A DNA stretch of 64,000 bases from an uncultured Gammaproteobacteria bacterium (GTDB lineage: Bacteria; Patescibacteriota; Microgenomatia; UBA10105; UBA927), in contig CAYGFH010000002.1 of the NCBI GenBank assembly GCA_964349125.1, forward strand, positions 110,484 through 174,483, written 5' to 3'. Numbering within the stretch: the stretch's first letter is position 1; each line of letters begins with the position of its first letter. Below the pieces are notes generated by a model. That model saw nothing but the letters and a program-made list of their open reading frames with translations, was not told the DNA's origin and searched no databases. Of the stretch, positions 1 to 53,126 are shown one piece after another. A program made the translations under genes and the position numbers.

Positions 1-1556
1 TTGAATCACTTCGGGGAACTGCCCAAGATGCATCAAGTGCAGTACAAGCATGTATTGATGCGGCACAGTCGGGAGACATTATTGAATTTCCGGCAGGGAA
101 ATATCAGATTGCACGCCAGGTGTTTTCACAAAAAAGCGGAATCACGCTTCGAACACAAGGCAAACAAGCATCTATGCCACGTTGCAACAATAGAACAACT
201 GATTGTGCAGAATTTGTCGCAACTTCATCGTTCCAGGGCGCCCAGGCATTATTTGTATTCCATGGGTCTAACCTGACTGTGGACCACCTCTCATTCAACG
301 GGAATCAATATGCACGAAATCATCAGAGAAATACCGATATCGGCGGGTACAATATCGTTGCAGCCGGTAACAATAACACATTCACAAATAACGTCGTTAA
401 AAATGCTCTGAAAATCGCCGCGTTTTGGATCGGAGGCGAATCAATCACTGTGAGTCGTAATCTTTTTTCCGCGAACGGGATGAGGAAAGATCCCTGGGTG
501 AATTTTGTTGCAGATGGCCTTATTGTCGCTGATACCACTCATGGAGTGTTTGAATACAACGAATTCGTCAACGGTGGCACGGACGTCGATATGATCTTTG
601 GATCATGCACGGACTGTTCTATCCGCCACAATACGTTTCGTCGAACGCCCCACATGTGGGGACACACAAATGCTGCTCTCATGTTTACCGATTGGGCCAC
701 GCCGATAGATACATCACTTGCACGGACACAGGTGTCTGACAATATGATAGATTGCGGACCACAGCGACGCTGTACGTTTGGGCTGGTAATCGGAAGTCAT
801 GCATGGATTCCGGACGCGCCGATTGCAGAGGGTGGCATGTTTTTCAACAATACCATTACCAACGCTCAGTACGGCCTTGTGATCGATGATCACAAAAACG
901 CTGAAGTGTACAATAACCCTGTGTCAAACACCACGGGATTTGCCTACTCCATCGGGCTTCATTCCAGTGGCATAGATCGATCAAAAGATACAACAGGGAC
1001 AACATATACCACGCATGATTGGGGTGGCAAGTATATGATGGGCTGTTTACTCAATTGTGACCTCCCTGCAGTAAATGCACAATTTATCAGCCAAAGTGTT
1101 CCGACAACCATGATTGCAGGAAGACCGTACGAGGTTTCGATAACACTCAAAAACACCGGATTTTATGAATGGAACACTTCGGAAACAAATGTCATGGGAC
1201 TCGGATCACACAATCCGCCAGATAATGGGACATGGGGTATGGCGCGTGTGGCGCTACCAGCACATATGAACGTAGGGATCAACGAATCACAAACTTTCAC
1301 CTTTACGGTTACAGCACCAAGCACGCCGGGAACGTATAATTTTCAGTGGCGCATGCTGCAGGATCAGGCGTACGGATGGTTCGGAGACACCACTCCAAAT
1401 GTTCAGATACAAGTGGCTGCCCCCTCACCAAACAGTAGTGATTTGAACACAGACGGCAAAGTAGATATATTTGATTACAATATTCTTGTTGCCAATTTTG
1501 GTAAACCATATACCATATTTGACTACAATACGCTGATAGGAAATTTTGGACGGTAA
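1..1556 (+). CDS. Secreted right-handed beta-helix (pectate-lyase-fold) protein with CARDB/NBR1-like Ig domain and C-terminal dockerin; 5'-truncated at the window edge
   Basis: Frame 3 is open from nt 3 (...AVQACIDAAQSGDIIEFPAGKYQIARQV..., a typical beta-helix N-terminal motif), so the true start is upstream of the track's GTG at 120. 'NNTFTNNVVKNA...SRNLFSANG' are beta-helix repeats. 'GRPYEVSITLKNTGFYEWN...TFTFTVTAPSTPGTYNFQWRM' is a CARDB-like segment. The C-terminus 'DLNTDGKVDIFDYNILVANFGKPYTIFDYNTLIGNFGR' is an EF-hand-like dockerin duplication. Confidence 0.6.
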   Translation, partial: ESLRGTAQDASSAVQACIDAAQSGDIIEFPAGKYQIARQVFSQKSGITLRTQGKQASMPRCNNRTTDCAEFVATSSFQGAQALFVFHGSNLTVDHLSFNGNQYARNHQRNTDIGGYNIVAAGNNNTFTNNVVKNALKIAAFWIGGESITVSRNLFSANGMRKDPWVNFVADGLIVADTTHGVFEYNEFVNGGTDVDMIFGSCTDCSIRHNTFRRTPHMWGHTNAALMFTDWATPIDTSLARTQVSDNMIDCGPQRRCTFGLVIGSHAWIPDAPIAEGGMFFNNTITNAQYGLVIDDHKNAEVYNNPVSNTTGFAYSIGLHSSGIDRSKDTTGTTYTTHDWGGKYMMGCLLNCDLPAVNAQFISQSVPTTMIAGRPYEVSITLKNTGFYEWNTSETNVMGLGSHNPPDNGTWGMARVALPAHMNVGINESQTFTFTVTAPSTPGTYNFQWRMLQDQAYGWFGDTTPNVQIQVAAPSPNSSDLNTDGKVDIFDYNILVANFGKPYTIFDYNTLIGNFGR

Positions 1557-1665
1557 ATTTGGATAGTGATCAGTATCTACATTATTCTTAAGGTTTTTCT
1601 CGTCTGCAGAAGCCTGAATTACTTCTTTTTTTTCCTTATTAATAATATAGTATATACTGATAGAA

Positions 1666-2688
1666 ATGGATCCTGAATTTACGGAACAAGCTCCAGTAAG
1701 ACAATCACCTCACAAAAAAATCATACTGATGCTTTCAGTATTATTATTCGGGACAGCGTCAGCTGCCATCTATTTTACCTTTGAGAGCCAAAAGATAGTG
1801 GGAGAACTCAACCGATTACAAGTATCACAAGACGCTGTCGGAGCACAGGCGACTCAATCAACAGAGGATTGGAAAACATATACCAATACGAACTATAACT
1901 TTAGCATCAAACACCCTGGTAATTGGAGTGTTACGGATAAACCATTAAATGATAAACGCTCAGGAATAAACACCGTGAGAGTATCAAACGGCTCAGATGC
2001 GGTATATATATCAATTCTTTCTGATGGATATGGAGGCGCATGTGCTTCAGAGTTTCAAAAAATACGTATCAGCGGTCAATATCGTGATGTATGCGTGTAT
2101 ATTTCAGAATCAGGAGAGAAAGCGTGGGAACAAATTACATTTGAAACAAAGAACGCTATTTTTGAACTGAGAGGATATGCAAAAACACCCGCAGATAGCT
2201 CATCATCTCTAATACCCCTCATTATATCGACGTTTACCTATGAGAATTCCGTTCAAGATTCGCAATGGAACGTATTCTCAAGCACAGAATACTCCTTTTC
2301 CTTTAAATATCCAAGTCGATTCAGCCGGTTAAATGAATTATTAGACGATGGCACATACGAGAGTATTGGATCGTTTTTCTCACAAAAGGATGAAGAGACA
2401 ATATCAGTTTCAGTCGTCAAAAATAGAACAGACTATACAGGAAAACCCGCATCCTTTGTCGCAAGACAAGAGGCAGCAAACAGCGGTTATGCGCATGCAA
2501 TAACCGAAACAAAAATTGGAAACTCTGCCGCTGCAATCACCAGCTACGACGATTCAAGCTTGGGATATGTTGTCATCACCCTAGCCCATCCGAGAAAAAA
2601 TACTTTTATAACGATTACGTTGCCAACTTCACTATCAAAAACTGAGTTCGAAGAACTGATTACTTCGTTTGAGTTTTCGATGAAGTGA
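1666..2688 (+). CDS. Hypothetical N-terminally membrane-anchored extracytoplasmic protein
   Basis: 340-aa ORF with a signal-anchor (KKIILMLSVLLFGTASAAIYF) followed by a soluble domain with no recognisable motif. Confidence 0.4.
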   Translation: MDPEFTEQAPVRQSPHKKIILMLSVLLFGTASAAIYFTFESQKIVGELNRLQVSQDAVGAQATQSTEDWKTYTNTNYNFSIKHPGNWSVTDKPLNDKRSGINTVRVSNGSDAVYISILSDGYGGACASEFQKIRISGQYRDVCVYISESGEKAWEQITFETKNAIFELRGYAKTPADSSSSLIPLIISTFTYENSVQDSQWNVFSSTEYSFSFKYPSRFSRLNELLDDGTYESIGSFFSQKDEETISVSVVKNRTDYTGKPASFVARQEAANSGYAHAITETKIGNSAAAITSYDDSSLGYVVITLAHPRKNTFITITLPTSLSKTEFEELITSFEFSMK

Positions 2689-2759
2689 AATTCTCCAGTG
2701 TCGAAATCAAACCGTACTTCTCGTTGTGACTCGTAACATCTACATGCTACCCTATATAT

Positions 2760-3938
2760 ATGTATTCATCACTAGTTAAAGTAGTCGGTTTCGTAAGCCT
2801 AGCATTCATATTCACGCCCGTTGTTATGGCAACAGGTAAGGAGACTAGCACGATCACTATTAACAAAAGTGTCCATGTTCCTGCTCAAGATAGTCCGTAT
2901 GTCAAAGTATTCGCCAAGGTTATCCCGGCTCCAACAAGCCTTAATGTGTCAGGAATGACCGGCAGCATTACCTTTACCAGTACACTCCCATATATCGCTC
3001 AAAGCGCAGTTGCTATCTGGTCCAGCCCTAACGGCACTTGTCCGGACGAACAAACTGTTTTTACCGAATATCAAACAATCCTCACCAATTTTCCCGGCAG
3101 TAAAAACATTAATTTTATCAACCTCATTCTCTCAAAGCCAGGTAGCGTCACTGTACCTGTCACTCACCAGTTCTCAGTCAAAAGACCACTGACTGGCTGC
3201 ATTTTTGTGACCTTTGACATGGCCGCAGCACCCGATGGAACTACCAGTAGCGGTGGGATCACTACCACCACCAATATATCCCTTACGTATGACACCCTCA
3301 CACCACCCTCACCTGCGCCTTTTGCAATTCCCATCGGCACTGAATACTGCTTTGGCACCACACAAGGATGTGCCAAGGCAACCACTTGCACAAATATCTC
3401 TTGTGCTTTTGCCACAATGTATAAAGTCACTTCTCCCCTCACGCTAACCGATCTCTTTGGCGATGTGACCGCAAGCCCACTCAATAGCCCAATGTATGGC
3501 ACTGCCCCCACAAGCACTTGGAGCGCTGCCACCGATTTTTATGTGTACAATACATGCGACAATCTTCCCAACCGCGTCAACGGGCCTGATAATTACTATG
3601 CACAGATTCCCGGGGATGCCACTCCCCTTCTCCATGTGCCAATAAATAGTACCTCAGACAACTCAGTCAACACTGCTGTTTCCAAAAAATTTGCCCCAAT
3701 CAAACTCGAAAAAGGCAATTGTCTCATCGGCCTCACCAAATTTTTCTCTCCAAATGGCGCTGTGACTGTCAATGCTCAGGTCTACGCCCTCCTGCAAGCC
3801 AGAAATACTACAAAGCCGGGAGATCTCGATGGCAATGGCAACGTCGACCTTTTTGATTACAATATATTGATCTCTAAATTTGGTAACCCCTATACGCTAA
3901 TTGATTTTAATACGTTACTAAGAAACTATGGTACTTAA
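2760..3938 (+). CDS. Secreted protein with C-terminal dockerin module
   Basis: Signal peptide MYSSLVKVVGFVSLAFIFTPVVMATG; C-terminus DLDGNGNVDLFDYNILISKFGNPYTLIDFNTLLRNYGT. Confidence 0.5.
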   Translation: MYSSLVKVVGFVSLAFIFTPVVMATGKETSTITINKSVHVPAQDSPYVKVFAKVIPAPTSLNVSGMTGSITFTSTLPYIAQSAVAIWSSPNGTCPDEQTVFTEYQTILTNFPGSKNINFINLILSKPGSVTVPVTHQFSVKRPLTGCIFVTFDMAAAPDGTTSSGGITTTTNISLTYDTLTPPSPAPFAIPIGTEYCFGTTQGCAKATTCTNISCAFATMYKVTSPLTLTDLFGDVTASPLNSPMYGTAPTSTWSAATDFYVYNTCDNLPNRVNGPDNYYAQIPGDATPLLHVPINSTSDNSVNTAVSKKFAPIKLEKGNCLIGLTKFFSPNGAVTVNAQVYALLQARNTTKPGDLDGNGNVDLFDYNILISKFGNPYTLIDFNTLLRNYGT

Positions 3939-5691
3939 TATATCTCTCCGTATCAAAATATTCTTACTTCTGGTTAGCATCTTATTCATTGGGGCACAAT
4001 CAACCAGAGCTACCAGTGCTCTCCTCACGGGTTCAATCATATCTATTGACCCGACTGGCTATATTCTAGGCAGAGTCACAGGCTCCAATAATAGTAAATT
4101 ACAAATTAACTTCTATCTCGATGGTCCTTCTGGTACCGAAGCCTGGATAGGTGATGCACACACGATACCCAATGGATACTTCTATTTTCAAATCCCAATC
4201 GAGAGGATCGAAGATGGTCAACGACATCGAGTCTACGTATATGCTTTTGACCCATCTGCCAGCGAATCAGACCGATCTGTACTCCTGATAGCTGGCAAAG
4301 CGCACGACATCCCTATAGTCTACCCCCTATCCCCCCATGCTTTCACTATTAATAACGTCATGCTCGCTAGTCCCACTAGCACCTCTATCACACTCGTTGT
4401 CCACACATCCCACCCCAGTAATATTACCGTTGAATATGGTCAGAACAGCAACTATGGTAGTCGAATAAGCTCCTCTAACCTTACGATACATAAAATTCTA
4501 ATATCTGGCCTCACTGCTAATCATTTATATCACTATCGCCTCACTGCCCAACAAGTATCAAATCTCACAACAATCATCACTAAATCTGACAAAACGTTCA
4601 AAACACAAGCACCACCAGGACAAGCATTTACTTTCGGCATTACCTCTGACAACCAAGGGCAGAATTGGTCCGCAATCGCCTCCAGACTACAAGAGCATAG
4701 CCCAACGCTCCTTTTGGGGATTGGCGACCATAGTGACAATTATGTACTGAACAAAATAAACCGTTTTGACTATTACCTCAGACAATGGCAATTAGATATT
4801 TTTAATTATACTCAAAATCTCACTGATCATATCAGCTCGTACTTCATTATGGGCAATCATGACTACCTCTCTCAACCAAGCAGCGGGAAATTACCCGTCC
4901 ATGTCTACGAAGATAGTCAAAAATATTTCAAGCAAATCTTTGCCAATCCAATTCCCTCAGATTCTCCCGACACCAATTATTCCTTTGAATATGGAGACGC
5001 TCACTTTGCCACTCTCGAAACATTTGATTCCTGCCCCAGCGAGTCTCAGTTAACCTGGCTCGATCAGGACCTAAAAAAAACCAATCGTATCTGGAAAATA
5101 ATTCTCATGCACATCCCCAACATAAATCCTGGCATGACTAGTACCACCACCCAATCACGCGGCAATTGTCTATTCACCAACCCCGAACGCGCCAAGTTGC
5201 TTCATAACATTTTCAAAACCAACAAAGTCGATCTCGTAATTAATGGACATTCACATACCTACAGCCGCTGGGTAAAAGATGGAGTTTATTACCTCACCAA
5301 TTCTACTTCTGGCAACTATACCAGTCACAACTCGCCCACTTCTATTATGAATATTTTTGATCTCCCCTTTGGAGAGACCGGTACACTCAATCCTCCCCGT
5401 TCAATCGCTGGGTCTGGATACATGGTAGGTTCAATTACCAGCAGTGAAATAAAAATCAGTGTGTTTAAAGCAGATGAACTATCTACTGTTACAGGTATAA
5501 AACTGCTGCAATACACAGAACCCAAATATGCACCTATAGATGCTGTCAGTATCAAAAAAAATCTGGCGAAGGGTGATCTCAATCAAGACGGCTTCGTCAA
5601 CATCATTGACTATAACGAACTTGTCAGTCACTTTGGATCAACATACGACATTAGCCATTACAATGACATAATCAAAAATTATGACAAATAA
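3928..5691 (+). CDS. Secreted metallophosphoesterase (purple-acid-phosphatase-like) with C-terminal dockerin
   Basis: Signal peptide. FN3-like N-terminal region. Calcineurin-like motifs GIGDHSDNY, FIMGNHDY and GHSHTYSR. C-terminus DLNQDGFVNIIDYNELVSHFGSTYDISHYNDIIKNYDK. The start ATG lies inside the previous gene's NYGT* codons. Confidence 0.6.
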   Translation: MVLNISLRIKIFLLLVSILFIGAQSTRATSALLTGSIISIDPTGYILGRVTGSNNSKLQINFYLDGPSGTEAWIGDAHTIPNGYFYFQIPIERIEDGQRHRVYVYAFDPSASESDRSVLLIAGKAHDIPIVYPLSPHAFTINNVMLASPTSTSITLVVHTSHPSNITVEYGQNSNYGSRISSSNLTIHKILISGLTANHLYHYRLTAQQVSNLTTIITKSDKTFKTQAPPGQAFTFGITSDNQGQNWSAIASRLQEHSPTLLLGIGDHSDNYVLNKINRFDYYLRQWQLDIFNYTQNLTDHISSYFIMGNHDYLSQPSSGKLPVHVYEDSQKYFKQIFANPIPSDSPDTNYSFEYGDAHFATLETFDSCPSESQLTWLDQDLKKTNRIWKIILMHIPNINPGMTSTTTQSRGNCLFTNPERAKLLHNIFKTNKVDLVINGHSHTYSRWVKDGVYYLTNSTSGNYTSHNSPTSIMNIFDLPFGETGTLNPPRSIAGSGYMVGSITSSEIKISVFKADELSTVTGIKLLQYTEPKYAPIDAVSIKKNLAKGDLNQDGFVNIIDYNELVSHFGSTYDISHYNDIIKNYDK

Positions 5692-7129
5692 ATCGCATGT
5701 AATTGCACAACTATTACTCTTTTTTCTGCCTCTCTGTTGCAATATCAATTATGTTTCCGCAAATACTACAACCAAGATCAGCGATATTACCATCAGTGCT
5801 TCCAGCACGATGGCTGACATGTCCCCACAGAACCTCCTCGATAATATCCCCAGTACTGTCTGGAATGCCGGGAGATCAGCGCCAGCCTGGGTCGCAGTTG
5901 ATCTTGGAAAACCCTATACAGTGAATCAGCTAGATCTGCGTACCAATCAAAGTAGCACAGGGAGAATAATCGTTACTATATCTGGGGGCCTTAGTCTCGA
6001 AACGTTGAAACCACTCATCACAATTGACCAATTCACATCCAACAAACAAGTTCTCACAATACCCTTACTCGCACCCGTTAGTAACATTCAATACATCAAA
6101 ATAACCACAACTCACAGTCCTTCTTGGGTTTCATGGTCTGACGTGGCTATCTATTCAGGAACAACCTCTGCGAATACTCATCTCAGGTATTACGGATATA
6201 TGAGTCATGACGGGCTGGTGAGTGACGTCGGCAGTAATTATTTTGCAGAAATCAGCGCTTTAGGCAATACCAATATTGCGTGGAGTACCTCAGCCAATTC
6301 ACAGCGTTTTGCTGATCATGGTATCATCACTATGATTACCGATCAAAGATGGGTTTTTTTTGACTCTGGTGGTAACCTCAACGTCAATTGGCAAACTAAA
6401 TGGAATACCCTCAAAACCCGTCTAGGTAGCGCCGACCATATTTACGGATTTTACTTTGATGAGCCTGTTTGGCGAGGGTACTCCAAAGAGGCGTTCCTGA
6501 CTGCAACTAAAACTATTAAGGAAGCCTATCCCAGCAAGGCGATTGTGGTAGTTGAGGCCGAGCCACCCATCTCAAACCACACGATTCCTGATGGATATTA
6601 TCAATATGTTACTGATATAGGTTTTGATTATTACTACACCAAAAACGGCAATGATTGGCAAACGTATCTAGATTTATTCGAAAAATTTCGCCCATATGCA
6701 GCAGGGAAAAAAATCTGGTTAATTCCCGATGGCTCCGGCAGCTACAGTAGTCTCTGGTCAGATGCCTACGAAAAATATCTCAGCATTGCTCTAACCAACC
6801 AACAAGTAGTTGGTCTGATGGGATTTTTATACCAATGGCCGACCGACAAACTCACGCTTCGTTCAGCTCTAATTCCGGGTGGATCAGTATACAACCAATC
6901 ATTTCGTACGAGGCAAATTGATATTGGCAAACATATAATCTCTACATCCAGAAATTCTATGCCAGGCGATCTCGACGAAAACAACTCGGTTAATATATTT
7001 GATTACAATATACTTGTTTCGAACTACGGTAAAACGGGATCAGTGGGGTGGATAGTAGCAGACATCGTAGCGGACGGCGTTATTAACATCTTTGATTACA
7101 ACATGCTGTTATCACAATTCCAATTGTAA
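5681..7129 (+). CDS. Secreted F5/8-type-C (discoidin)-domain protein with putative TIM-barrel hydrolase-like region and tandem dockerin repeats
   Basis: Signal peptide. 'ISASSTMADMSPQNLLDNIPSTVWNAGRSAPAWVAVDLGKPYTVNQLDL' is discoidin-like. C-terminus DLDENNSVNIFDYNILVSNYGKTG...DIVADGVINIFDYNMLLSQF. The start overlaps the previous gene's NYDK* end. Confidence 0.5.
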   Translation: MTNKSHVIAQLLLFFLPLCCNINYVSANTTTKISDITISASSTMADMSPQNLLDNIPSTVWNAGRSAPAWVAVDLGKPYTVNQLDLRTNQSSTGRIIVTISGGLSLETLKPLITIDQFTSNKQVLTIPLLAPVSNIQYIKITTTHSPSWVSWSDVAIYSGTTSANTHLRYYGYMSHDGLVSDVGSNYFAEISALGNTNIAWSTSANSQRFADHGIITMITDQRWVFFDSGGNLNVNWQTKWNTLKTRLGSADHIYGFYFDEPVWRGYSKEAFLTATKTIKEAYPSKAIVVVEAEPPISNHTIPDGYYQYVTDIGFDYYYTKNGNDWQTYLDLFEKFRPYAAGKKIWLIPDGSGSYSSLWSDAYEKYLSIALTNQQVVGLMGFLYQWPTDKLTLRSALIPGGSVYNQSFRTRQIDIGKHIISTSRNSMPGDLDENNSVNIFDYNILVSNYGKTGSVGWIVADIVADGVINIFDYNMLLSQFQL

Positions 7130-7152
7130 CTCGTATTGTTAGGGTACCGAAA

Positions 7153-8127
7153 CTACTTTCGGAAGAAATTCAGTACACTCTGGAGAATATTTTTTACAAA
7201 CAAAACGACACCTGATAGAACTCCGGCTGACTGTGCCGTGTTTTCTCCGACGGTTGTGTCTGAAAACGGAGAATATTCATTTGTATCTGAAACAACTGGT
7301 TCCTGACCCATAACAGGATCAGATATAGGTTCCTGAGGAAGATCCGAGGAATCACCCATCGGGCTGTTCCGGACAGAAACAGTTGACCCGGGGGTCGATG
7401 TAACCGAAATATTTGCCCTATTCGTTGCGTTTCTCGCTATTTGTTGGGAAGCAGTCGGACTGGGTGTTGATGTCTGCTGTACGTGTTGCGTGGGTGACAG
7501 CGTGGATTGAGCGTTGCTTTCAACGGAGACAGCCACATCACCGCGGGAAGCCAATACGTTGGTTTGTTTTCCGACAGCAGTCACAATAGTAGCAGGGTCA
7601 AGGACCAAAGATGTTTGCTTCTTTGCTTTTCCCTTTACTATAAAGCTCCCCATGCTGACGGATCCTTTGTAGGGCGATTGGGGTTGCACCCCCACAACGA
7701 CAACCGCATGATTGTTTGCTTTGGTAAGTGGCTTTAACACAATCGGAAAATTGTTTGATGGTGTAAACGAAACAATATCGAGTGCTGTTTGATCAAATCG
7801 CATATCAATGGAAGCCGCGGAAACAACATCGTCATGCGTGTCCAACCATACGTCCACCCGTGTCTGCTCTCCGACAGGAAATGCTTTTTTCCCAATCAGC
7901 AACTTTAACGATGGACCCGTATATCCGGCCTTTGTCCGCGTCTCTGTCGATTTTGATGGCGACCAAATCACCATACCAAGCACTCCAAGCGATAGAATAG
8001 AAAAAAAAGTGAAAGCGGCAATTTTTCTGTATGATCCTGATTGTTGTACTGGATCTGGTACAACCGAACGTGGCGGTTGTACAAAAGAATGTTCATCATC
8101 GATCGTCTGGTTTGCCTGTTGATCCAT
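7153..8127 (-). CDS. Membrane-anchored protein with cohesin-like beta-sandwich domain and Ser/Thr/Pro-rich linker
   Basis: Short cytoplasmic N-terminus, then TM (IAAFTFFSILSLGVLGMVIWS). The ~140-aa segment 'RVDVWLDTHDDVVSAASIDMRFDQTALDIVSFTP...SVSMGSFIVKGKAKKQTSLVLDP' has the strand pattern of cohesin domains. An STP-rich tail follows. It sits among five dockerin genes. Confidence 0.4.
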   Translation of the reverse strand: MDQQANQTIDDEHSFVQPPRSVVPDPVQQSGSYRKIAAFTFFSILSLGVLGMVIWSPSKSTETRTKAGYTGPSLKLLIGKKAFPVGEQTRVDVWLDTHDDVVSAASIDMRFDQTALDIVSFTPSNNFPIVLKPLTKANNHAVVVVGVQPQSPYKGSVSMGSFIVKGKAKKQTSLVLDPATIVTAVGKQTNVLASRGDVAVSVESNAQSTLSPTQHVQQTSTPSPTASQQIARNATNRANISVTSTPGSTVSVRNSPMGDSSDLPQEPISDPVMGQEPVVSDTNEYSPFSDTTVGENTAQSAGVLSGVVLFVKNILQSVLNFFRK

Positions 8128-8216
8128 ATTGCTCTATGAGTATCTCTATTATGCCTTACCGAGTGATAAAGTCAATTATGATTGATATTGCACTGGTATT
8201 GCCATACTATATCCAT

Positions 8217-9881
8217 ATGAACATACAGGGAATTGTTGTGCGCATTATTACGCTTAGTGTAATCTTGTTACTCCATACTGTTCCCGCTCATGCCGCACCT
8301 AACCCTCCCCAACTAGACCGTTCATTTTTTGACCGTAAGGACGTTATCTACAGCTCACAGATCCCTTCATGGGGCCAGATAGATGGCCGATTTGATGGTC
8401 AATACATGCTTAATTATAACAATAGCTGTCCCACGTGTCCTCAGCTTGTCCGGGATGCAAAAATTCCCGTAATTCGCTGGATGGTTTGGGCGCCGTTTTC
8501 TGACCAGATCGATCCAAAAACGAATAAGCCAGGTGCCATGACCGAGGAACAATTTAATAACGTCATCAACGGTATTAGAAACACACTCAATGCCCATCCG
8601 TTTATCCCGCTGCAACCGATCGCTGAAAAGATATTTTGCCCGGATACCTGGGGCGTTGATAACCTGATGAAAATGAACAAAAACATCATACGGGTGGCAG
8701 GAAATCGAGTCCAGCTCTACGAAATAGCCAATGAGCCGGAAATTGATTGTAAATGGGCTAAGTATTCCACTGGAACCGGTGGTCAGGGTGTCAAAATGGC
8801 AGATTACTGGATTAAAATGGTTCCGGAATTAAAACGCTATGCCCGCTCATTGGGGTTTGAAATTTACATTGGAGGCCCTGCTTTTTTCACCGCTGCAGTA
8901 ACGTCTGAAATGCAGGATTTCCTGACCACCATCAGAAGTGAATATAATCGCACGCAAAATAAAGATCTGATTCCTGATTTCGTTACGTTTCATATATTCG
9001 GTGATACCAACTGTACCGTAGCGGCAGGTAAGACACTGAACGATATACCAGGCTCATGTCTGGACAGCTATGGCAGCCAAATCGACAACGTCCATCATAT
9101 GATTACTACGACCTGGGCGGGAGTAAACCCTCTGCCAAAACTGGTTATCTCTGGCTCTGCAGTTTCAGTTGCTGCTACATGGCCAATAGAGCAAATTAAT
9201 GTGATTTCAGAGAAATGGCAGGAGCGATTTTTGACACTGATGCGCAGTAAAAATATATTCATGGCAAACCTCGTCACGATGGCGAGTAAAGAAGGTAACC
9301 CCCGCGATGTTATTAGAAAAGATGGATCAACCGCTCCATCATACAATGCGCTAAAAAGACTCTCACTCACTGATCCTCTAGCGATAGAATCTAGAAATAA
9401 ACTGGTAAAACAACCTGAAGGATGGTTAACCGGCGTAACTTGTGAGCAGATTCGGGGTTGGGCTTGTGATCCCGAGGATTTCAACCAATCAATCGGCGCA
9501 TATCTCTATGCCGACGGGCCAACAGGAACAGGGAAACACATTGGATCGCCCGTGGCAAACAACCAGAGCGAAAATAGTGTTTTTCAATACTGTGGTGGTG
9601 CAAAGAATCGAACCTTTTCCATGCCATTCCCATCTTCACTCAAAGATGGTAAGCCGCACACTATCTATGCCTATACCAAACGCCTAGATACCACAAAAAC
9701 AAATCCACAACTGGGTGGTTCTCCAAAAACAATTACCTGTGCGCAATCAACGGCTAAACAGGGAGATTTAAATAATGATAATCGTGTCGATGCCGATGAT
9801 CTCTCCATTCTTGTGAGTCGGTTCGGAAACCCCTACACAATATTTGACTTTAATACACTAACCACACACTTCGGGAAATAA
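8217..9881 (+). CDS. Secreted clan GH-A-like glycoside hydrolase with C-terminal dockerin
   Basis: I moved the start from the track's 8031 to the ATG at 8217, which gives a clean signal peptide MNIQGIVVRIITLSVILLLHTVPAHA. The 'LYEIANEPEID' NEP motif is typical of the clan GH-A acid/base. C-terminus DLNNDNRVDADDLSILVSRFGNPYTIFDFNTLTTHFGK. Confidence 0.5.
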   Translation: MNIQGIVVRIITLSVILLLHTVPAHAAPNPPQLDRSFFDRKDVIYSSQIPSWGQIDGRFDGQYMLNYNNSCPTCPQLVRDAKIPVIRWMVWAPFSDQIDPKTNKPGAMTEEQFNNVINGIRNTLNAHPFIPLQPIAEKIFCPDTWGVDNLMKMNKNIIRVAGNRVQLYEIANEPEIDCKWAKYSTGTGGQGVKMADYWIKMVPELKRYARSLGFEIYIGGPAFFTAAVTSEMQDFLTTIRSEYNRTQNKDLIPDFVTFHIFGDTNCTVAAGKTLNDIPGSCLDSYGSQIDNVHHMITTTWAGVNPLPKLVISGSAVSVAATWPIEQINVISEKWQERFLTLMRSKNIFMANLVTMASKEGNPRDVIRKDGSTAPSYNALKRLSLTDPLAIESRNKLVKQPEGWLTGVTCEQIRGWACDPEDFNQSIGAYLYADGPTGTGKHIGSPVANNQSENSVFQYCGGAKNRTFSMPFPSSLKDGKPHTIYAYTKRLDTTKTNPQLGGSPKTITCAQSTAKQGDLNNDNRVDADDLSILVSRFGNPYTIFDFNTLTTHFGK

Positions 9882-23864: not shown

Positions 23865-25643
23865 TCAAATTTCGGTCATTCGAGCAAATTCTTCTCTGGG
23901 CAAAAATGGGAATAAATCTTCATACGGTTTGGAAACCATTCGTCCGTCAGCAGCTTTCTCTGATGATACCCGCGGAATGATAAGTTGCCATTCTGGAGAG
24001 AGCACATCTATGACCATCGGCCCCTCAAATGTCATAATGCTCTTTAGTTTTCTATTCAACTCATTCGGCGTGGATATACGAACTGCCTTGATGCCATACG
24101 CCTCAGCAATTTTTATGGAGTCTGGTATATACAATCCGGTTTTGGGACTTTCTCCAAGTAGTCTTCCTTCCATATGAGTTTTTTGCGTATGGCGGATAAG
24201 TAAATACCCGTTATTGTTAATCACAAATAGTTTTATATTCAGCTTATTTTGTTTGAGTGTTGCCAGCTCCTGCAAATTCATCTGGAGACACCCGTCTCCT
24301 GTAATCACCAACGTCTGACCGTTTGGACGTGCCATAGCCGCACCTATGGATGCGGGCCAATAGCCCATGGTCGATATACCGCCGGTGGTGATAAACCGTT
24401 GCCCTTTCTTAATTTTCCATGTCTGACACACGACATGGAATGGAGAGCTCGTATCCACAACGATGGTGTCATGTTTTGAAGCGGCCTCTGATAACTTGTC
24501 AGTAAACAGATAGGAATTTACTTTTTTTTCTTTCGCGTACTGCGGGAGATTCATCGGATATGCTTTTTTCCACACACCGATCCGTGATACCCAGTGAGAG
24601 TACGAATGAAGTGACACTCCTGCTATCCCGCTTGAGAGTGCTGACAAAAACTGTTTCGCATCCGATTGAATTGTCAGTGACGGCGTAATTCCCGGTTTAT
24701 CCAATTCCTTCTGATCCACGTCCACGATTACCTTGAATGCCCGCCTACCCCAATCAGAAGCATCGTATCCAACTACCCCAGGGTCAAGTCTTGCTCCGAC
24801 TGCGATAATCAGATCAGCCATCTGGACGGCAAAGTTTGCCGGCCTGTCACCGTACAAACCCGGCCTGCCGACAAACTGATTGGTATAGGAGTCGACCAGA
24901 TCAATGCCGAGCCGTGTGGTAGCAACGGGCATGCGCGTTTTTTTTAGAAACTGTTCCATTTCCCGCACTGCGCCTGAGAGGAATATCCCATGACCCGCTA
25001 TAAACAGTGGACGCTTGGCATTACAAAGAAGCGTCACGATACGCTCGATATCACTTGCCTGTGTCATGCACGATTCTCTGCACTCTGACTCAGAAAATTG
25101 CTTCATGCCTTTTTTGGGCATTTGCATTCTCTGGATATCCAGTGGTACATCAATCCAAACAGGACCCGGTCTTCCATGAGTCGCAACATGCCATGCTTTT
25201 TCCAGGTGATACTCTACACTCAGAGGGTCATCGATCGACACATAGTATTTTGTCACACTGCTGGCCAAGGGTTTCATGTGGATGCCCTGAAGTCCGTATT
25301 GCCGTATCCCTGTTTTTTCCATGTACGCGGCATTACCGCTTGATGATTGGCCCGCTATGACGATCATTGGAGCGCTGTCCACATAGGCTCCGACTACACC
25401 GGTAAGTGCATTCACACCCGCTGGGCCTGCTGTCACCATGGCAACACCCAAGTTGCCCGAAATTCTTCCATATCCTTCCGCAGCCATAGCCGCTGCCTGC
25501 TCATGATGATGGAAAATCGGACGTATTTTCTTAGACTGATAGATTGCGTCGTTTAGAAACATCGCCTGCCCGCCGGGAACCATAAACACGGTATCCACCC
25601 GTTTTTTTTCTATGTACGACACGATGTACTCTGCAATATTCAT
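23865..25643 (-). CDS. Thiamine-diphosphate-dependent enzyme, acetolactate-synthase/YerE-like
   Basis: N-terminal Pyr domain (VFMVPGGQAMFLNDAIYQ...). C-terminal ThDP motif GDGCLQMNLQELATL...NNNGY. 592 aa. Confidence 0.75.
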   Translation of the reverse strand: MNIAEYIVSYIEKKRVDTVFMVPGGQAMFLNDAIYQSKKIRPIFHHHEQAAAMAAEGYGRISGNLGVAMVTAGPAGVNALTGVVGAYVDSAPMIVIAGQSSSGNAAYMEKTGIRQYGLQGIHMKPLASSVTKYYVSIDDPLSVEYHLEKAWHVATHGRPGPVWIDVPLDIQRMQMPKKGMKQFSESECRESCMTQASDIERIVTLLCNAKRPLFIAGHGIFLSGAVREMEQFLKKTRMPVATTRLGIDLVDSYTNQFVGRPGLYGDRPANFAVQMADLIIAVGARLDPGVVGYDASDWGRRAFKVIVDVDQKELDKPGITPSLTIQSDAKQFLSALSSGIAGVSLHSYSHWVSRIGVWKKAYPMNLPQYAKEKKVNSYLFTDKLSEAASKHDTIVVDTSSPFHVVCQTWKIKKGQRFITTGGISTMGYWPASIGAAMARPNGQTLVITGDGCLQMNLQELATLKQNKLNIKLFVINNNGYLLIRHTQKTHMEGRLLGESPKTGLYIPDSIKIAEAYGIKAVRISTPNELNRKLKSIMTFEGPMVIDVLSPEWQLIIPRVSSEKAADGRMVSKPYEDLFPFLPREEFARMTEI

Positions 25644-25648
25644 ATGGA

Positions 25649-26692
25649 TTATGTCAGTGACTCCAGATGGAAATCATTTGGCTTATTTCGTTTTTGACTT
25701 CCCAGCATTTTTGCTATCTCGATAATCATATCTTCCTGCCCTGCAACTATCTGTCTGCGGCCTAACTCGGATAGTATATCACGCACATCAACATCGTATG
25801 CTTTCGCGGCTTTCACCACGTGCGGAGCAAAGCCTGAAAATACTCCCGCAAGCCCGCTTGATAACGTCACTGAGTTTATTTCCGGTAGGTGCGGCACCCA
25901 TGTTGACACAATATCTCCCCCATCCATGAGCGGGTACAATTCCACACCCGTGTCCAGTTTCATTCTGGCAAACAGCGCCACAACAACTTCAAGGGGCACA
26001 TTTCCGGCTCCAGCGCCCAGACCGCGTGCTGTGCCATCGATAATCGTGGCGCCGTGTTCTACGGCAACCAACGAGTTTGCCACGGCCAATCCCAGATTAT
26101 TATGTGCATGAAACCCCACGTCTATCGATAAACCGGAGACGAGCTTTTCCACTTTCTCTTTCACATCATCCGTCAGATACGCGCCTGCGCTGTCCATGAG
26201 AATCACGCCTTCCGCCCCATAAGACTCCATCAGTTTTGCCTGTTCCAGAAGTCCGGATGCATCAAGCATATGGGACATCATAAGCACACCATAGGTGGTT
26301 AATTTTTTGTTTTTTGCGTACACGATATGCTGTTTTGTCACGGTCGCCTCGCTGCAGTGACACGCGACTATGAGTGTGCTGATTCCGGATTCGATTGCGG
26401 GCGCGAGATCCGCATGTATGGTGCCAAATCCGGGAATTAAAAATCCGGCAAGTGACGTGTTGTGAAGTACGGATTTCGCCGACGCAAACATATCACTGTC
26501 CGAGAGTAGCGCCCGTCCCAAATGGACAGACGATGCGCCCAACCCGTTTCCGTGCCCTACCACAAGTACCGGTACATGCGCTTCTTCCGCCTTTGTTGAG
26601 TATGACGAAATCATGTCAGCGGAAAGTTGGTGCGCTATGGCATGGGAACCATCCCGAAGCGTGGAATCAATGATGGTAATTTTTCTGTTCAT
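25649..26692 (-). CDS. 4-hydroxy-2-oxovalerate aldolase-like (DRE-TIM metallolyase, DmpG family)
   Basis: IIDSTLRDGSHA, HAHNNLGLAVANSLVAVEHGA and DGTARGLGAGAGN motifs. Confidence 0.7.
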   Translation of the reverse strand: MNRKITIIDSTLRDGSHAIAHQLSADMISSYSTKAEEAHVPVLVVGHGNGLGASSVHLGRALLSDSDMFASAKSVLHNTSLAGFLIPGFGTIHADLAPAIESGISTLIVACHCSEATVTKQHIVYAKNKKLTTYGVLMMSHMLDASGLLEQAKLMESYGAEGVILMDSAGAYLTDDVKEKVEKLVSGLSIDVGFHAHNNLGLAVANSLVAVEHGATIIDGTARGLGAGAGNVPLEVVVALFARMKLDTGVELYPLMDGGDIVSTWVPHLPEINSVTLSSGLAGVFSGFAPHVVKAAKAYDVDVRDILSELGRRQIVAGQEDMIIEIAKMLGSQKRNKPNDFHLESLT

Positions 26693-26705
26693 ATATACTA
26701 TTTTA

Positions 26706-27590
26706 TTATTTTATTTTTTTGGTAGCATACCCTTCAGCAACGGCGATGGCCGCGCAGTTAATGATATCCAGATTACCGGCATAAATAGGCAGAAAATCGC
26801 CCAAGCCTACCACCTGAGACATGATGACAATCCGTCCATGATCATAGAACGGAGCATGAATCAGTGAGTAGCCCGGAGTATATTCACGGACTTTGGAAAC
26901 CACCGCAGATACAGCCTTCTCAATAGCCTTCATGTCGGGAGACTCATACGGTATATAGATTGTATTATGCATCATAATTGGCGGATCTGCGGAATTGAGA
27001 ATAATAATCGTTTTTGCTTTTTTCACACCGGTAAGGGAAACAATGGCATCGCTGGTTGTTTGGGTATACTCATCGATGTTCTCCCTGGTGCCGATACCTG
27101 CTGATCGGGAGGAAATACTCGAAACAATCTCTACGTAGGGTATATTGGGTAATACTGTTGATATGGCATGAAGTATCGGAATATTTGCCTGACCACCGCA
27201 GGAAATCATACTGACATTGGCATTCTTAACGCCCTCCGATTTATTCACTACGGGGACACATAATGCCCCGATTTTAGATGGCGTCATATCGATGACAAAT
27301 TTTTGCAGTTTTTTAAGTATCGGTGCGTGAACAAGGTGGTGTTTGGCGCTGGTTGCATCAAACACAATGTCAATATGTTTCTCCTCACGCACGATTGCAG
27401 CAATGGAATCAGCGGATACGGGAATCCCCATACGTTTTGCCCTCTGAATTCCTTCAGACGCTGGATTTTGTCCTGCAAACAATACACAGGATAAATGGGG
27501 AGATCGCATCACTTTGGAGAGCAAATCACTCCCGATATTTCCGGTGCCAAGGATGGCAACTCTCGCTTTTGTTGATCGTGATTTTTTCAT
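26706..27590 (-). CDS. Acetaldehyde dehydrogenase (acetylating), DmpF-like
   Basis: VAILGTGNIGSDL Rossmann motif. Catalytic-Cys region ISCGGQANIPILHAIS. About 294 aa. Adjacent to the DmpG-like gene. Confidence 0.7.
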   Translation of the reverse strand: MKKSRSTKARVAILGTGNIGSDLLSKVMRSPHLSCVLFAGQNPASEGIQRAKRMGIPVSADSIAAIVREEKHIDIVFDATSAKHHLVHAPILKKLQKFVIDMTPSKIGALCVPVVNKSEGVKNANVSMISCGGQANIPILHAISTVLPNIPYVEIVSSISSRSAGIGTRENIDEYTQTTSDAIVSLTGVKKAKTIIILNSADPPIMMHNTIYIPYESPDMKAIEKAVSAVVSKVREYTPGYSLIHAPFYDHGRIVIMSQVVGLGDFLPIYAGNLDIINCAAIAVAEGYATKKIK

Positions 27591-51170: not shown

Positions 51171-53126
51171 GTGGTATCAATGTGGTGTTATATTCTTATG
51201 AAACGAGTCTTTACATACCTTGCTGATCCATCTCATATACACATCATTTTAGCGGTGGGATTGCTGTTTCGTCTCGTACTTATACCGAGCCCCGGGTTTG
51301 AAGCGGACATTTCATTCTGGAAATCATGGGGTCTTGCTGTGCGTGATTACGGCATAGTGAAGGGATTACCACTTACGAATTTCAACTACCCTACTCCTTT
51401 CGGATACATGCTTGGTTTCATGGCGCATGTGTATAGCCTTTTCTCTGATCCGCATAATTTTGATCAGTTCTGGAAAAATACAAATCTCCTCTTCCTCACT
51501 GTTGCAAAAGCTCCATCAATTTTAGCTGATTTTGGTATTTTTACTATTATCCTTTGGGTTGGGAAAAATGCAAAACGGCTCAATTTTCCGCAACTTTCGC
51601 TCTCAATCTATTATCTTTTGGCAGCCATATATATACTTTCTCCCCTCCCGATGTTTGATGGTGCGCTTTGGGGACAGGTTGATAGTGTGGGGGTATTTCT
51701 GTTTCTGCTTGCCAATGTGTTCGTATGGAGAAAACAGCCACTTTTGGGAGGAATTTTTTACATGGTTTCCATGATGACCAAGCTGCAGAACCTTATCTAC
51801 GGACCGGCATTTTTTCTCTTTGTCTGGCAATATCTGGGTTATACGGGACTTGTGCGGGCAGTCGCCGGGAGCGTAGCCACATTTATCGGACTGAACATTG
51901 AGTTTATCCTTGCTAGGCAAATGTACCGCGTTGCGGGAGACCTGACAGGCAATTATGACTATTTCCCATGGATGTCGCTTAATGCCTATAACGTCTGGTG
52001 GATAGTAGCCAAGGCGCACGGGATGCAGATTTCAGATAAACTGTCAGTCATAGGTATTGCAAGCGCAAAGACAGTCGGATTATTTCTGTTTTCCTCCACA
52101 TACCTTTTGGCCTGTTTACAAATGCTTAGAGGTCGATTCCTTGGTGTCGTTGCGAGCGAAGCGCGGCAATCTCATCATAAGATTGCTTCGACCGATGGTA
52201 CTCATGGGTCTCGCAATGACATTGATGAAAGCTCAATCATCAATAAAGAACTTATCTTCCGCTACCTGAGCGCACTTATCATTGTGTGTGCCGGGTTCTT
52301 CCTATTCCAAACTCAATCGCACGACAGATATGCATTCCCAATCGCTGTATTTGCCCTTCTTTGGGCTCCCTTTTACATCAGCGGGTTACGTGTTGCGATA
52401 GACAAAGTACGCATACAACAATTTATATTGTTTTACGGAATTTTTACCGTTCTATTTTTCTACAACATCCATAACGCCATGATTGCAAACTACCCAAAAA
52501 ATGGCATCCCGCTTCTCGGTTCACTCAATATCCCTCCCCTGACCATCGCCACGTCGTATGGGCAAATAGGGTTATTCCTTGCCTTTCTGTACACTATCAG
52601 AACATACATAACGAACCAAATTTTCATAATTGCGACGAGTGTTTGGATATTACTTGTCGTCATGGCAAACAAGGCACTCATTCTGGGTAAGCCCATACCC
52701 ATCACAGACCTCACACCAATTACCAGCATCACGGGCTACGGCAGGCGTCAGGAAAACATGCCGGTGAATGCGAGTTTCGGTATAAAAAACTGGGGATTTT
52801 TGTCGGTACAATATGCGTACTACAAGCGAGGTATAGGAACACACGCGCCGAGCCGTGAGGTATATGATATAAATCGTAAGTTTCGCACACTTTCTACAGA
52901 CATGGGAATCGACACCAACGGCGGACCACAGGGAAGTGTGATATTTTCAGTGTATGGGGACGGGAAACAACTGTACCAATCAGAACTTATCAAGCGGTAC
53001 GAATTCCCTAGGCACGCCACCATAGATATAACAGGTGTAAAGACACTGGAACTAAGCATTTCAGATGGCGGAAACGGAAATTTTGATGATCATGCAAATT
53101 GGTTAAACACGTACCTGATACCGTAA
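51171..53126 (+). CDS. Polytopic membrane protein (GT-C-like paralog) with C-terminal NPCBM/NEW2 carbohydrate-binding domain
   Basis: The C-terminal 140 aa 'FGIKNWGFLSVQYAYYKRGIGTHAPSREVYDI...GIDTNGGPQGSVIFSVYGDGKQLYQS...LELSISDGGNGNFDDHANWLNTYL' match the NPCBM signature. The gene contains an in-frame 75-bp palindromic element at 52146..52220. Confidence 0.45.
   Translation: MVSMWCYILMKRVFTYLADPSHIHIILAVGLLFRLVLIPSPGFEADISFWKSWGLAVRDYGIVKGLPLTNFNYPTPFGYMLGFMAHVYSLFSDPHNFDQFWKNTNLLFLTVAKAPSILADFGIFTIILWVGKNAKRLNFPQLSLSIYYLLAAIYILSPLPMFDGALWGQVDSVGVFLFLLANVFVWRKQPLLGGIFYMVSMMTKLQNLIYGPAFFLFVWQYLGYTGLVRAVAGSVATFIGLNIEFILARQMYRVAGDLTGNYDYFPWMSLNAYNVWWIVAKAHGMQISDKLSVIGIASAKTVGLFLFSSTYLLACLQMLRGRFLGVVASEARQSHHKIASTDGTHGSRNDIDESSIINKELIFRYLSALIIVCAGFFLFQTQSHDRYAFPIAVFALLWAPFYISGLRVAIDKVRIQQFILFYGIFTVLFFYNIHNAMIANYPKNGIPLLGSLNIPPLTIATSYGQIGLFLAFLYTIRTYITNQIFIIATSVWILLVVMANKALILGKPIPITDLTPITSITGYGRRQENMPVNASFGIKNWGFLSVQYAYYKRGIGTHAPSREVYDINRKFRTLSTDMGIDTNGGPQGSVIFSVYGDGKQLYQSELIKRYEFPRHATIDITGVKTLELSISDGGNGNFDDHANWLNTYLIP
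52146..52220. mobile_element. MITE-like palindromic element copy A (75 bp) with terminal inverted repeats GTCGTTGCGAG / CTCGCAATGAC and internal hairpin GCAATCT-n7-AGATTGC, inserted in-frame in a CDS
   Basis: Direct alignment with copy B. It is translated as ...VVASEARQSHHKIASTDGTHGSRND. Confidence 0.6.

Follow-up and report, generated by a model that had tools for sequence, protein, structure and literature searches.

A likely non-cellulosomal cohesin-dockerin surface-display locus in a putative Microgenomates-type bacterium

The DNA analyzed here (the window; 64 kb) most likely derives from a member of the CPR/Patescibacteria of the Microgenomates type, probably an ultra-small organism. A six-frame regular-expression search found a Ca-loop motif exactly five times in the window, always between 1 and 9.9 kb and always directly followed by a stop codon, which confirms the five motif-bearing tails of the preliminary description. 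That description called the five genes consecutive; all of them indeed lie within 1–9.9 kb, but their run is interrupted by a gene whose product lacks a dockerin.

1..1556, + strand: cargo 1, secreted protein with a right-handed beta-helix (pectate-lyase-like) and an Ig-like domain (Pfam Beta_helix 1.8e-8, N_BRCA1_IG 1.9e-6)
1666..2688, + strand: PsbP_2-like TM-anchored protein of 340 aa without dockerin (Pfam PsbP_2 1.1e-7; TM helix aa 19-33)
2760..3938, + strand: cargo 2, secreted 392-aa protein with signal peptide and no known fold
3928..5691, + strand: cargo 3, secreted metallophosphoesterase with signal peptide (Pfam Metallophos 1.1e-15)
5681..7129, + strand: cargo 4, secreted protein with signal peptide and a discoidin (F5/8 type C) glycan-binding domain (Pfam F5_F8_type_C 7.6e-9)
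8217..9881, + strand: cargo 5, secreted protein with a (beta/alpha)8 barrel of clan GH-A and a beta-sandwich (AF2 and Foldseek)

These bodies are the ones originally proposed, and the signal peptides ascribed to all five cargo proteins were found. Frame 3 of cargo 1 is open from base 3, and its N-terminus therefore lies beyond the window edge; the 72 amino acids outside include the signal peptide (MKTHLPYIVICAAAALFLYAPPVHA), which was read from the source contig (L011), where the full-length protein has 550 amino acids. Cargo 2 matches nothing in Pfam, NCBIfam or the PDB. The genes for cargos 3 and 4 each share 11 bp with their upstream neighbor. The purple-acid-phosphatase N-terminal domain was matched weakly in cargo 3, and the discoidin domain of cargo 4 is followed by ~260 amino acids without family assignment. 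The true start of cargo 5 is internal, at about 8151-8217 rather than 8031. Foldseek matches its AF2 model to GH51, GH39, GH79 and GH5_4; in the alignment the NEP acid/base motif is retained and SGSA stands in place of the nucleophile motif SEWN, so cargo 5 is probably a GH-A-fold protein that has lost its nucleophile. Whether the PsbP_2-like protein belongs to the system is uncertain.

The C-terminal tails of the cargo proteins are of two kinds.

1422..1553, + strand: short one-loop dockerin of cargo 1, DLNTDGKVDIFD-YNILVANFG-KP-YTIFD-YNTLIGNFGR
3804..3935, + strand: short one-loop dockerin of cargo 2
5560..5688, + strand: short one-loop dockerin of cargo 3, whose second helix (YDISHYNDIIKNYDK) diverges most
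6950..7126, + strand: two-loop dockerin of canonical length, cargo 4 (Pfam Dockerin_1 6e-4, profile positions 1-52 of 57)
9747..9878, + strand: short one-loop dockerin of cargo 5

In the first loop of the tails, positions 1, 3, 5, 9 and 12 carry the canonical Ca ligands, and the tail profile matches solved dockerins (2y3n_B at 1.2e-9); both support the identification of the tails as dockerins. The tails in the window score at most 20.3 bits against the Pfam Dockerin_1 cut-off of 22.9, and the two-loop tails of related loci exceed that cut-off (28.8-30.3 bits). The dockerin of cargo 4 is 58-62% identical over 52-55 amino acids to dockerins of related loci, among them L004 and L005, whose titles name Gottesmanbacteria (blastp 3e-17). 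The duplication of the Ca loop that had been described for every tail applies to this one alone; in its second loop, ligand position 3 is a V. Each of the remaining four tails has a single complete loop and has lost 15 residues internally, so that only the helix 'IFDYNxL..FG' is repeated. Loop 2 lacks its positions 1-7 in these short tails, and the linker between the repeats is gone as well; both 'IFDYN' helices are kept, with the hydrophobic I-F pair at positions 10/11.

The remaining gene of the locus, on the opposite strand, encodes a single-cohesin protein.

7153..8127, - strand: cohesin anchoring protein, 324 aa, transcribed divergently from cargo 5
7960..8022, - strand: N-terminal TM helix, aa 36-56 (19-aa hydropathy 2.32)
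7498..7941, - strand: cohesin domain, aa 63-210, type-I-like, all-beta, no helical insert (family HMM 1.1e-49)
7234..7512, - strand: S/T/P/Q-rich stalk, aa 206-298 (16 S, 13 T, 10 P and 8 Q in 93 aa)
7156..7233, - strand: C-terminal amphipathic/hydrophobic helix (...AGVLSGVVLFVKNILQSVLNFFRK), preceded by EYSPF

This architecture agrees with the TM-anchored protein and STP-rich stalk of the preliminary description: there is one strong helix, and S, T and P account for 39 of the 93 stalk residues. The TM helix follows a polar segment of 35 aa whose last residues are YRK. The helix itself may be either a signal anchor or a signal, uncleaved or cleaved. The cohesin is only ~12 residues from the TM helix and the stalk is distal, which is an odd display geometry if the N-terminal helix is not removed. 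The search for relatives returned 255 proteins. PF00963 was matched by 43 of 45 cohesin-family relatives (best 9e-15), and the window cohesin taken alone falls just under the Pfam Cohesin cut-off (22.6 vs 24.1 bits). Against the PDB, the family profile matched 3l8q at 1.9e-11 and NagJ at 1e-6. The AF2 model of the ectodomain has a pLDDT of 94.9, and its best 26 Foldseek PDB matches are all cohesins (TM ~0.7), with 2jh2, 2vo8 and 2xdh among the top matches. By sequence and predicted structure, the ectodomain is a cohesin. Profile search and structure prediction, the two computational checks initially suggested, both came out in favor of the preliminary interpretation.

The portion of the genome covered here is the window and a 37.5-kb Logan contig. 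In the window, family-built HMMs detected one cohesin (E 1e-49), five dockerin tails (E-values of 1e-24 to 1e-26) and no further cohesin or dockerin at E<=10, so that the other 54 kb hold neither module. The lone cohesin gene sits within the dockerin gene run. Comparable arrangements recur elsewhere. At six of nine related genome loci, one to three dockerin-tailed ORFs directly adjoin a cohesin gene; those loci with informative titles are assigned to Gottesmanbacteria/Patescibacteria. Their cargo is carbohydrate-active (beta-helix/GH141-like, BNR, SASA plus GH core, DUF4434 and GH32-like), and between loci the dockerin module alone is conserved while the cargo bodies differ. A further 79 metagenome loci were retrieved solely through the short-dockerin junction 'FGNPYTIFDYN', which occurs in 107 ORFs, C-terminally in 105. 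Cohesins are encoded in 20 of these 79 loci and in 13 of the 33 that span at least 5 kb; all 20 lie on the same strand as the short dockerin, 12 of them <=150 nt away. Cohesin-dockerin linkage therefore recurs across independent genomes and metagenomes. Several of the metagenome contigs that carry both modules have groundwater-style names.

We consider it likely that the locus encodes a non-cellulosomal cohesin-dockerin surface-display system. In this model, the five cargo proteins would be exported through their Sec signal peptides and their C-terminal dockerins would plug, in a Ca2+-dependent manner, into the single type-I-like cohesin of the 324-aa envelope-anchored protein. In each short tail, one Ca loop leads into helix 1, which a 6-residue turn joins to helix 3; with both cohesin-contact helices kept, the short tails are expected to occupy the same cohesin face. 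The cell surface could thereby hold a changeable mix of glycan-binding, glycan-cleaving and phosphate-releasing proteins, a mix that would serve in scavenging or in contact with a host or substrate surface.

The same docking could operate with a different mode of anchoring. The N-terminal helix, present in 145 of 150 cohesin-family members, may be a signal peptide cleaved at the conserved motif R-[ST]-[RK]-A, after which the C-terminal amphipathic helix would hold the mature cohesin, or the cohesin would be set free as a soluble adaptor. This motif fits the -3/-1 rule and is found just before the cohesin in 79 of 150 relatives, but it lies 10-12 residues past the hydrophobic core, farther than a usual c-region. 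The order cohesin, stalk, C-terminal helix mirrors classical anchoring scaffoldins, and the helix ends in RK; with a mean hydropathy of 0.82 and a moment of 1.58, however, it is amphipathic and not a clear membrane span, and it is found in only 53 of 150 relatives, about a third. Relatives with an N-terminal helix and a C-terminal dockerin do resemble secreted adaptors. We regard this alternative as somewhat unlikely.

It is improbable that the modules are genuine and their local pairing is not, such that the five dockerins bind cohesins encoded elsewhere, for instance in a multi-cohesin scaffoldin, or on another cell and the local cohesin binds a different ligand. The family does include multi-cohesin proteins (19/150), such as P0002 with nine cohesins, as well as cohesin-plus-dockerin proteins (22/150); the cohesin census spans 64 kb, and the real partners may be cohesins encoded beyond it. 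PMC10066038 cites Peer et al. (2009) for the observation that no partner is known for many non-cellulosomal dockerins. Against this stand the position of the only cohesin in the 64 kb, inside the dockerin gene run, and the tight, recurrent, same-strand adjacency of dockerin and single-cohesin genes at independent loci.

Very improbable is the notion that the dockerin of cargo 4 is the only working plug and that the four short tails are decayed remnants or Ca-binding stabilizing or carbohydrate-binding appendages without cohesin contact: despite the missing part of loop 2 and linker and a pLDDT of ~30 for the tail in the sole AF2 model containing one (cargo 5), the strong conservation of the 'FGNPYTIFDYN' junction across the 79 independent loci argues for selection rather than decay, linkage to cohesin genes is seen for the short-tail genes themselves, and the I-F pair persists in both helices. 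Published work on truncated dockerins points both ways. In R. flavefaciens, dockerins that occur naturally in a truncated one-loop form show high-affinity binding to a cohesin anchored at the cell (PMC12270676). Of eight engineered half-dockerins, three bound cohesin (one ~100-fold more weakly) and five did not (PMC12270676); because halving often abolishes binding, the four short tails could be weak or non-binders.

In comparing the docking system proposed here with known ones, we found both shared features and differences. The R. flavefaciens group-2 dockerins that pair with ScaE (PDB 9GVB; PMC12270676) are also ~40 amino acids long, with one Ca2+ loop followed by two helices, and stand C-terminally on secreted proteins; their partner is likewise a single cohesin attached to the cell envelope. 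However, 9GVB is absent from the profile matches at E<=10, which indicates no detectable sequence relationship to RfDoc2. The kind of truncation also differs: in the window tails a stretch inside the module is deleted and helices 1 and 3, both 'IFDYN', remain, whereas the second helix of RfDoc2 corresponds to an additional helix 4. A 2:1 binding mode belongs to the R. flavefaciens system. For the window locus, sequence and models show the domain identities, export signals, copy numbers and recurrent linkage; from these we infer local binding, its Ca dependence and stoichiometry, the anchoring mode and the physiological role.

The preliminary description termed the system cellulosome-style. The docking principle is indeed shared with the classical C. 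thermocellum cellulosome (CipA/OlpB type), namely a Ca-dependent F-hand dockerin, a jelly-roll cohesin and signal-peptide cargo with a C-terminal dockerin. Unlike that cellulosome, the window contains no multi-cohesin scaffoldin, CBM, SLH or sortase anchor; none of the cargo proteins is a cellulase, and the one with a GH fold has probably lost its nucleophile. Also comparable are the non-cellulosomal or "minimal" systems, such as the C. perfringens NagJ/GH84 pairs, the Archaeoglobus fulgidus cohesin 2XDH and one-cohesin Cellulosilyticum lentocellum (PMC13487519), in which one or few cohesins serve a few dockerin-tailed proteins other than classical cellulases; the fold matches 2jh2, 2vo8 and 2xdh accord with this likeness. 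The window locus differs from them in the N-terminal TM helix, S/T/P stalk and C-terminal helix of its cohesin protein, in its probable CPR lineage, in the truncation of most plugs and in the recurrent clustering of cohesin and dockerin genes.

The pilin genes (three, of the N_methyl type) and the glycosylation island of the preliminary description follow the locus; adjacency to pilin genes did not recur at other loci in a weak test. Cohesins and dockerins in Microgenomates are already known. Our literature search on them found no account of the locus layout, the TM-anchored single-cohesin family or the short dockerin subtype. The existing reports concern the supergroup to which we assign the window and likewise describe cohesin and dockerin domains, but at the level of domain annotation and read as cellulosomes. 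Cohesin and dockerin proteins of Ca. Roizmanbacterium were described by Geesink et al. (2020), as cited in PMC9123182, and a metaproteome of Ca. Shapirobacterales (Microgenomates) revealed that such proteins are expressed (10.1101/2021.08.21.457207, PMC9123182).

Family HMMs, the predicted fold and recurrent gene linkage together lend computational support to a cohesin-dockerin docking system at 1–9881, putative as to binding and distinct from a strict-sense cellulosome. Seven genes occupy the left 9.9 kb of the window, and six of them had been grouped in the preliminary description as a minimal docking module. We designate the five genes with dockerin tails cargo 1 to cargo 5.

Genes in the left 9.9 kb of the window
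1–1556: cargo 1, right-handed beta-helix and Ig-like domain
1666–2688: PsbP_2-like, TM-anchored protein without a dockerin, interrupting the cargo run
2760–3938: cargo 2, 392 aa, no recognisable family
3928–5691: cargo 3, metallophosphoesterase (Metallophos, 1e-15)
5681–7129: cargo 4, discoidin/F5-8 type C protein (7.6e-9)
7153–8127, minus strand: cohesin protein, 324 aa
8217–9881: cargo 5, no sequence-level family

The cargo bodies first read from the sequence (beta-helix, a protein of no family, metallophosphoesterase, discoidin and GH-A fold) were all recovered, as was a signal peptide on every cargo protein. Cargo 1 extends past the left window edge and encodes 550 aa on the source contig, where its N-terminal signal peptide lies. 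The gene upstream of it carries no dockerin, and the cluster therefore starts at cargo 1. Cargo 5 has an internal start at ~8151–8217 with a clear signal peptide. The five dockerin genes had been described as consecutive; the number holds, but the PsbP_2-like gene lies among them. Cargo 2, 3 and 4 each overlap the next by 11 bp (3928–3938 and 5681–5691), an arrangement suggestive of operon-style translational coupling among the three genes. None of the literature and database sources consulted gives names for these proteins.

The cohesin protein contains a single strong TM helix near its N-terminus, followed by the cohesin domain and a long stalk.

Features of the cohesin protein (7153–8127, minus strand)
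aa 1–35: polar N-terminus
aa 36–56: strong TM helix, the only one
aa 63–210: cohesin domain
aa 206–298: S/T/P/Q-rich stalk of 93 aa
C-terminus: amphipathic helix, final residues RK

Searched by itself, this protein scores below the Pfam PF00963 cut-off of 24.1 bits, at 18.9 bits over its whole length and 22.6 bits when the domain is taken separately, with an alignment that spans profile positions 3–133 of 139. A word-indexed homologue search returned only the protein itself; an exhaustive HMMER search found 255 relatives, and 43 of the 45 that were aligned match PF00963 individually (best 9.3e-15). The PDB matches of the resulting family profile are nearly all cohesins, including 3l8q (ScaB; 1.9e-11) and the NagJ cohesin of C. 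perfringens (1e-6). When the ectodomain was used as a single sequence its sole PDB match was Mto2, a spurious hit that the family profile replaces with cohesins. The AF2 model of the domain, built from the family alignment, is all-beta (pLDDT 94.9, pTM 0.86), and in a Foldseek search of the PDB its 26 best-ranking matches are without exception cohesins (TM 0.58–0.74, probability 1.00), among them the non-cellulosomal cohesins of Archaeoglobus and C. perfringens. Model and matches share the nine-stranded flattened beta-sandwich (jelly-roll) that characterizes cohesins. The structure prediction proposed as a check on the preliminary description thus yielded a cohesin fold, and the cohesin-like ectodomain it had claimed is upheld by profile and model alike.

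A regular expression for the Ca-loop, applied to all six frames of the 64 kb, gave exactly five matches, all in 1–9.9 kb and each directly before a stop codon. With the family HMMs, the window yields five dockerins at E 1e-24 to 1e-26 and a single cohesin at E 1e-49, with no further member of either family at E<=10. All five tails are C-terminal modules of secreted proteins, each ending at a stop codon in a product with a signal peptide. Their first loops carry D/N at ligand positions 1, 3, 5, 9 and 12 and are followed by a helix, the arrangement of an F-hand. Among solved dockerins, the tail profile matches 2y3n_B best (1.2e-9), then 5nrm, 4fl4, 2mte and 1daq; matches to the PPR proteins 4wsl and 4pjr reflect only the helix pattern YNTLIS...G (i-E>=39 per stretch) and were discarded. 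Pfam Dockerin_1 (PF00404) gives the window tails 14.5–20.3 bits, all below its cut-off of 22.9, and homologous two-loop tails of related loci 28.8–30.3 bits, above it. Both families are recognized at the profile level, with the single window sequences below Pfam cut-offs. In the full-length AF2 model of the GH-like protein, the dockerin tail has a pLDDT of ~30.

A duplicated Ca-loop had been ascribed to all five tails. The motif is indeed present five times, but the tandem loop-helix duplication (a 22-residue segment with two Ca sites) is confined to the discoidin protein, 5681–7129, in which loop 2 has V at position 3. From end to end, this two-loop tail shares 58–62% identity with dockerins of related loci, two of them Gottesmanbacteria-titled. 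The other four tails are short: an internal deletion of 15 residues has taken out the linker between the repeats together with loop 2 positions 1–7, so that the element repeated in them is the helix IFDYNxL..FG and not the loop.

One explanation for the short form is decay at this locus. A database search revealed the same junction in independent fragments, and a degenerate DNA pattern for FGNPYTIFDYN alone retrieved 79 metagenome loci (median length 4 kb), in which 105 of 107 matches lie <=14 aa from a stop codon. Because of these independent fragments, the 79 loci and the position next to stop codons, the short dockerin, as judged from its sequence distribution, is not a product of local decay. 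All tails inspected in the 79 loci are of the one-loop type. Many of these loci (L012–L090) show 2–4 junction matches on one strand, 2–4 kb apart, and thus form window-like tandem arrays of short dockerins. Several short-dockerin loci are on contigs named Hain-H41/H51, presumably for the groundwater site at Hainich, the source of a described Roizmanbacterium.

The linkage of the two module types was addressed by comparative genomics. Cohesin relatives occur at nine loci in species-representative genomes, with record titles of Ca. Gottesmanbacteria (three), Patescibacteria (one) and Gammaproteobacteria or Pseudomonadales (five). In six of the nine, 1–3 dockerin-tailed ORFs directly adjoin the cohesin gene, and two of the nine have a dockerin at the end of the cohesin protein itself. 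The converse test is independent, since the 79 metagenome loci were chosen by the short-dockerin junction alone. Family cohesins were found in 20 of these 79 loci (13/33 of those at >=5 kb and 8/18 at >=8 kb). In all 20 the closest cohesin shares a strand with the short-dockerin gene; it lies within 150 nt of that gene in 12 and downstream of it in 16, and is often present as two or three tandem cohesin genes. The window departs from this common layout solely in the inversion of its cohesin gene, which diverges from cargo 5. Only the dockerin module is conserved between loci; the cargo bodies vary and, where recognisable in related loci, are carbohydrate-active. A constant dockerin on varying cargo reads as the signature of a portable plug and a constant socket. 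Some loci have 2–4 tandem single-cohesin genes (L015, L032, L046, L052, L069, L040 and L077), and one relative, P0002 (2276 aa), is a scaffoldin with nine cohesins and a two-loop dockerin at its end; these genes point to larger assemblies within the family. The five MAG loci titled uncultured Gammaproteobacteria or Pseudomonadales (L002, L003, L006, L007 and L008) have cohesin loci 65–100% identical to the Gottesmanbacteria-type query, and we suspect that these titles are taxonomic mislabels.

In a classical cellulosome, cellulases and hemicellulases are brought together by a multi-cohesin scaffoldin that also has a cellulose-binding module. The window, in contrast, encodes one cohesin, no multi-cohesin scaffoldin and no CBM, and its cargo proteins are not cellulases. 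Docking by cohesin and dockerin is already known, also outside cellulosomes and in Microgenomates. Modules of both types outside cellulosomes are long known according to PMC10066038, which cites Peer et al. 2009, and a system of one cohesin and one dockerin has proved functional in C. lentocellum (PMC13487519). Cohesin and dockerin proteins were reported as expressed in Ca. Shapirobacterales (Microgenomates), and the same source mentions "cellulosomes" in Ca. Roizmanbacterium (10.1101/2021.08.21.457207). An essential protein of a cultivated Saccharibacterium carries a dockerin domain (PMC10633639). The novelty here lies in the lineage of short dockerins and in the conserved cassette: we found no literature on the TM-anchored single-cohesin family, on the [cargo-Doc]n-[cohesin]n layout or on this short dockerin subtype.

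Natural one-loop truncated dockerins have been described only for R. flavefaciens group 2, where they are called the sole functional truncated dockerins known and where two of them together occupy the cell-anchored ScaE cohesin (PMC12270676). The short tails resemble that description in their length of ~40 aa and their single Ca2+ repeat followed by a second helix. They differ in that 9GVB, the RfDoc2 structure entry, is not among the PDB matches of the tail profile at E<=10, and in the type of deletion, which keeps both contact helices. The second helix repeats the IFDYN of helix 1 and is therefore a helix-3 remnant, not a helix-4 equivalent. A dockerin of ~38 aa with one Ca site and both contact helices challenges the statement in PMC12270676 on the only functional truncated dockerins and, if it binds, would provide a useful small affinity tag or part for designer scaffolds. 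It is tempting to speculate, although we consider it rather unlikely, that the FGNPYTIFDYN tails are a second, independently evolved lineage of functional truncated dockerins, widespread in uncultured, probably CPR, bacteria, whose [cargo-Doc]n-[TM-cohesin]n operons provide a plug-and-play set of surface tools for contact with a host or substrate, perhaps with each cohesin taking up two plugs, as it does in R. flavefaciens.

How CPR/Patescibacteria, with their tiny genomes and mostly uncharacterised surfaces, display enzymes and adhesins on their envelopes is poorly understood, and a compact, recurrent cohesin-dockerin cassette offers a concrete, testable mechanism for holding proteins there. 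Alongside the observed module identities, export signals, copy numbers and gene linkage, we infer binding, its Ca dependence, its stoichiometry and its role as follows. Cargo proteins would be exported via Sec; their dockerins would fold around Ca2+ and then dock on the cohesin of the envelope-anchored protein, and the cell surface would in this way retain a mixture of proteins that bind glycans, cleave glycans or act as phosphoesterases. Of these steps, anchoring is the least secure. An N-terminal helix is present in 145 of 150 members of the cohesin family. In 79 of the 150, a (T)QDxR-S-R-A-type motif, R-[ST]-[RK]-A, which obeys the -3/-1 rule of signal peptidase, stands just before the cohesin (aa 60–70), and 53 of the 150 carry a C-terminal amphipathic helix, IFxQxFSSILxFFxKLF (aa 285–324), often preceded by (D/E)[YW]SPF. 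Neither the post-TM motif nor this helix has a Pfam or NCBIfam match; they may be processing or sorting signals. Because of the cleavage-like motif and the C-terminal helix, a precursor that is cleaved and then retained through its C-terminus is a live alternative to anchoring by the TM helix.

The AF2 model of cargo 5 reveals a confident (beta/alpha)8 barrel and a beta-sandwich, with its best structural matches in the clan GH-A families GH51, GH39, GH79 and GH5_4. The acid/base motif NEP is kept (alignment A6). At beta7, all 13 distant homologues have the nucleophile motif [ST]-E-[WY]-N; cargo 5 and its 79% relative have S-G-S-A. Because of this replacement, cargo 5 is probably not a retaining glycosidase but a catalytically dead fold, and it may act as a lectin. 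The beta-sandwich before its dockerin (9443–9878, aa 409–554) shows 34% identity, across 160 aa that take in the dockerin, with the module standing before the dockerin of an unrelated DUF7705 cargo (L008:7660–9906). This module may be a shared X-module that travels with the dockerin.

Downstream of the locus are three type IV pilin-like genes (N_methyl) and a large sugar-modification and glycosyltransferase island, as first described. Pilin adjacency was not recurrent in related loci (0/8 and 4/79) by a weak regular expression, which recovers just one of the three pilins in the window. These surroundings are best taken for a cell-surface region of general character and not for a component of the docking system. 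No tRNA or Rfam element was found in the window. Within the glycosylation island, 23865–27590 (minus strand) encodes an unusual combination of a TPP-dependent enzyme, an HMGL/DmpG-like aldolase and an acetaldehyde dehydrogenase, flanked by aminotransferase/acetyltransferase and GT2 genes; these enzymes may build a modified sugar side chain. An ORF of 2643 aa at 56007–63938 (minus strand), in a region with a G+C of 0.39–0.41 (~0.45 elsewhere), has no Pfam match at E<=1e-3, and the family HMMs detect neither a cohesin nor a dockerin in it. The 651-aa product of 51171–53126 (plus strand) has a C-terminal NPCBM/NEW2 glycan-binding domain (8.5e-32) without a dockerin and is a further candidate for a surface glycan-binding protein.
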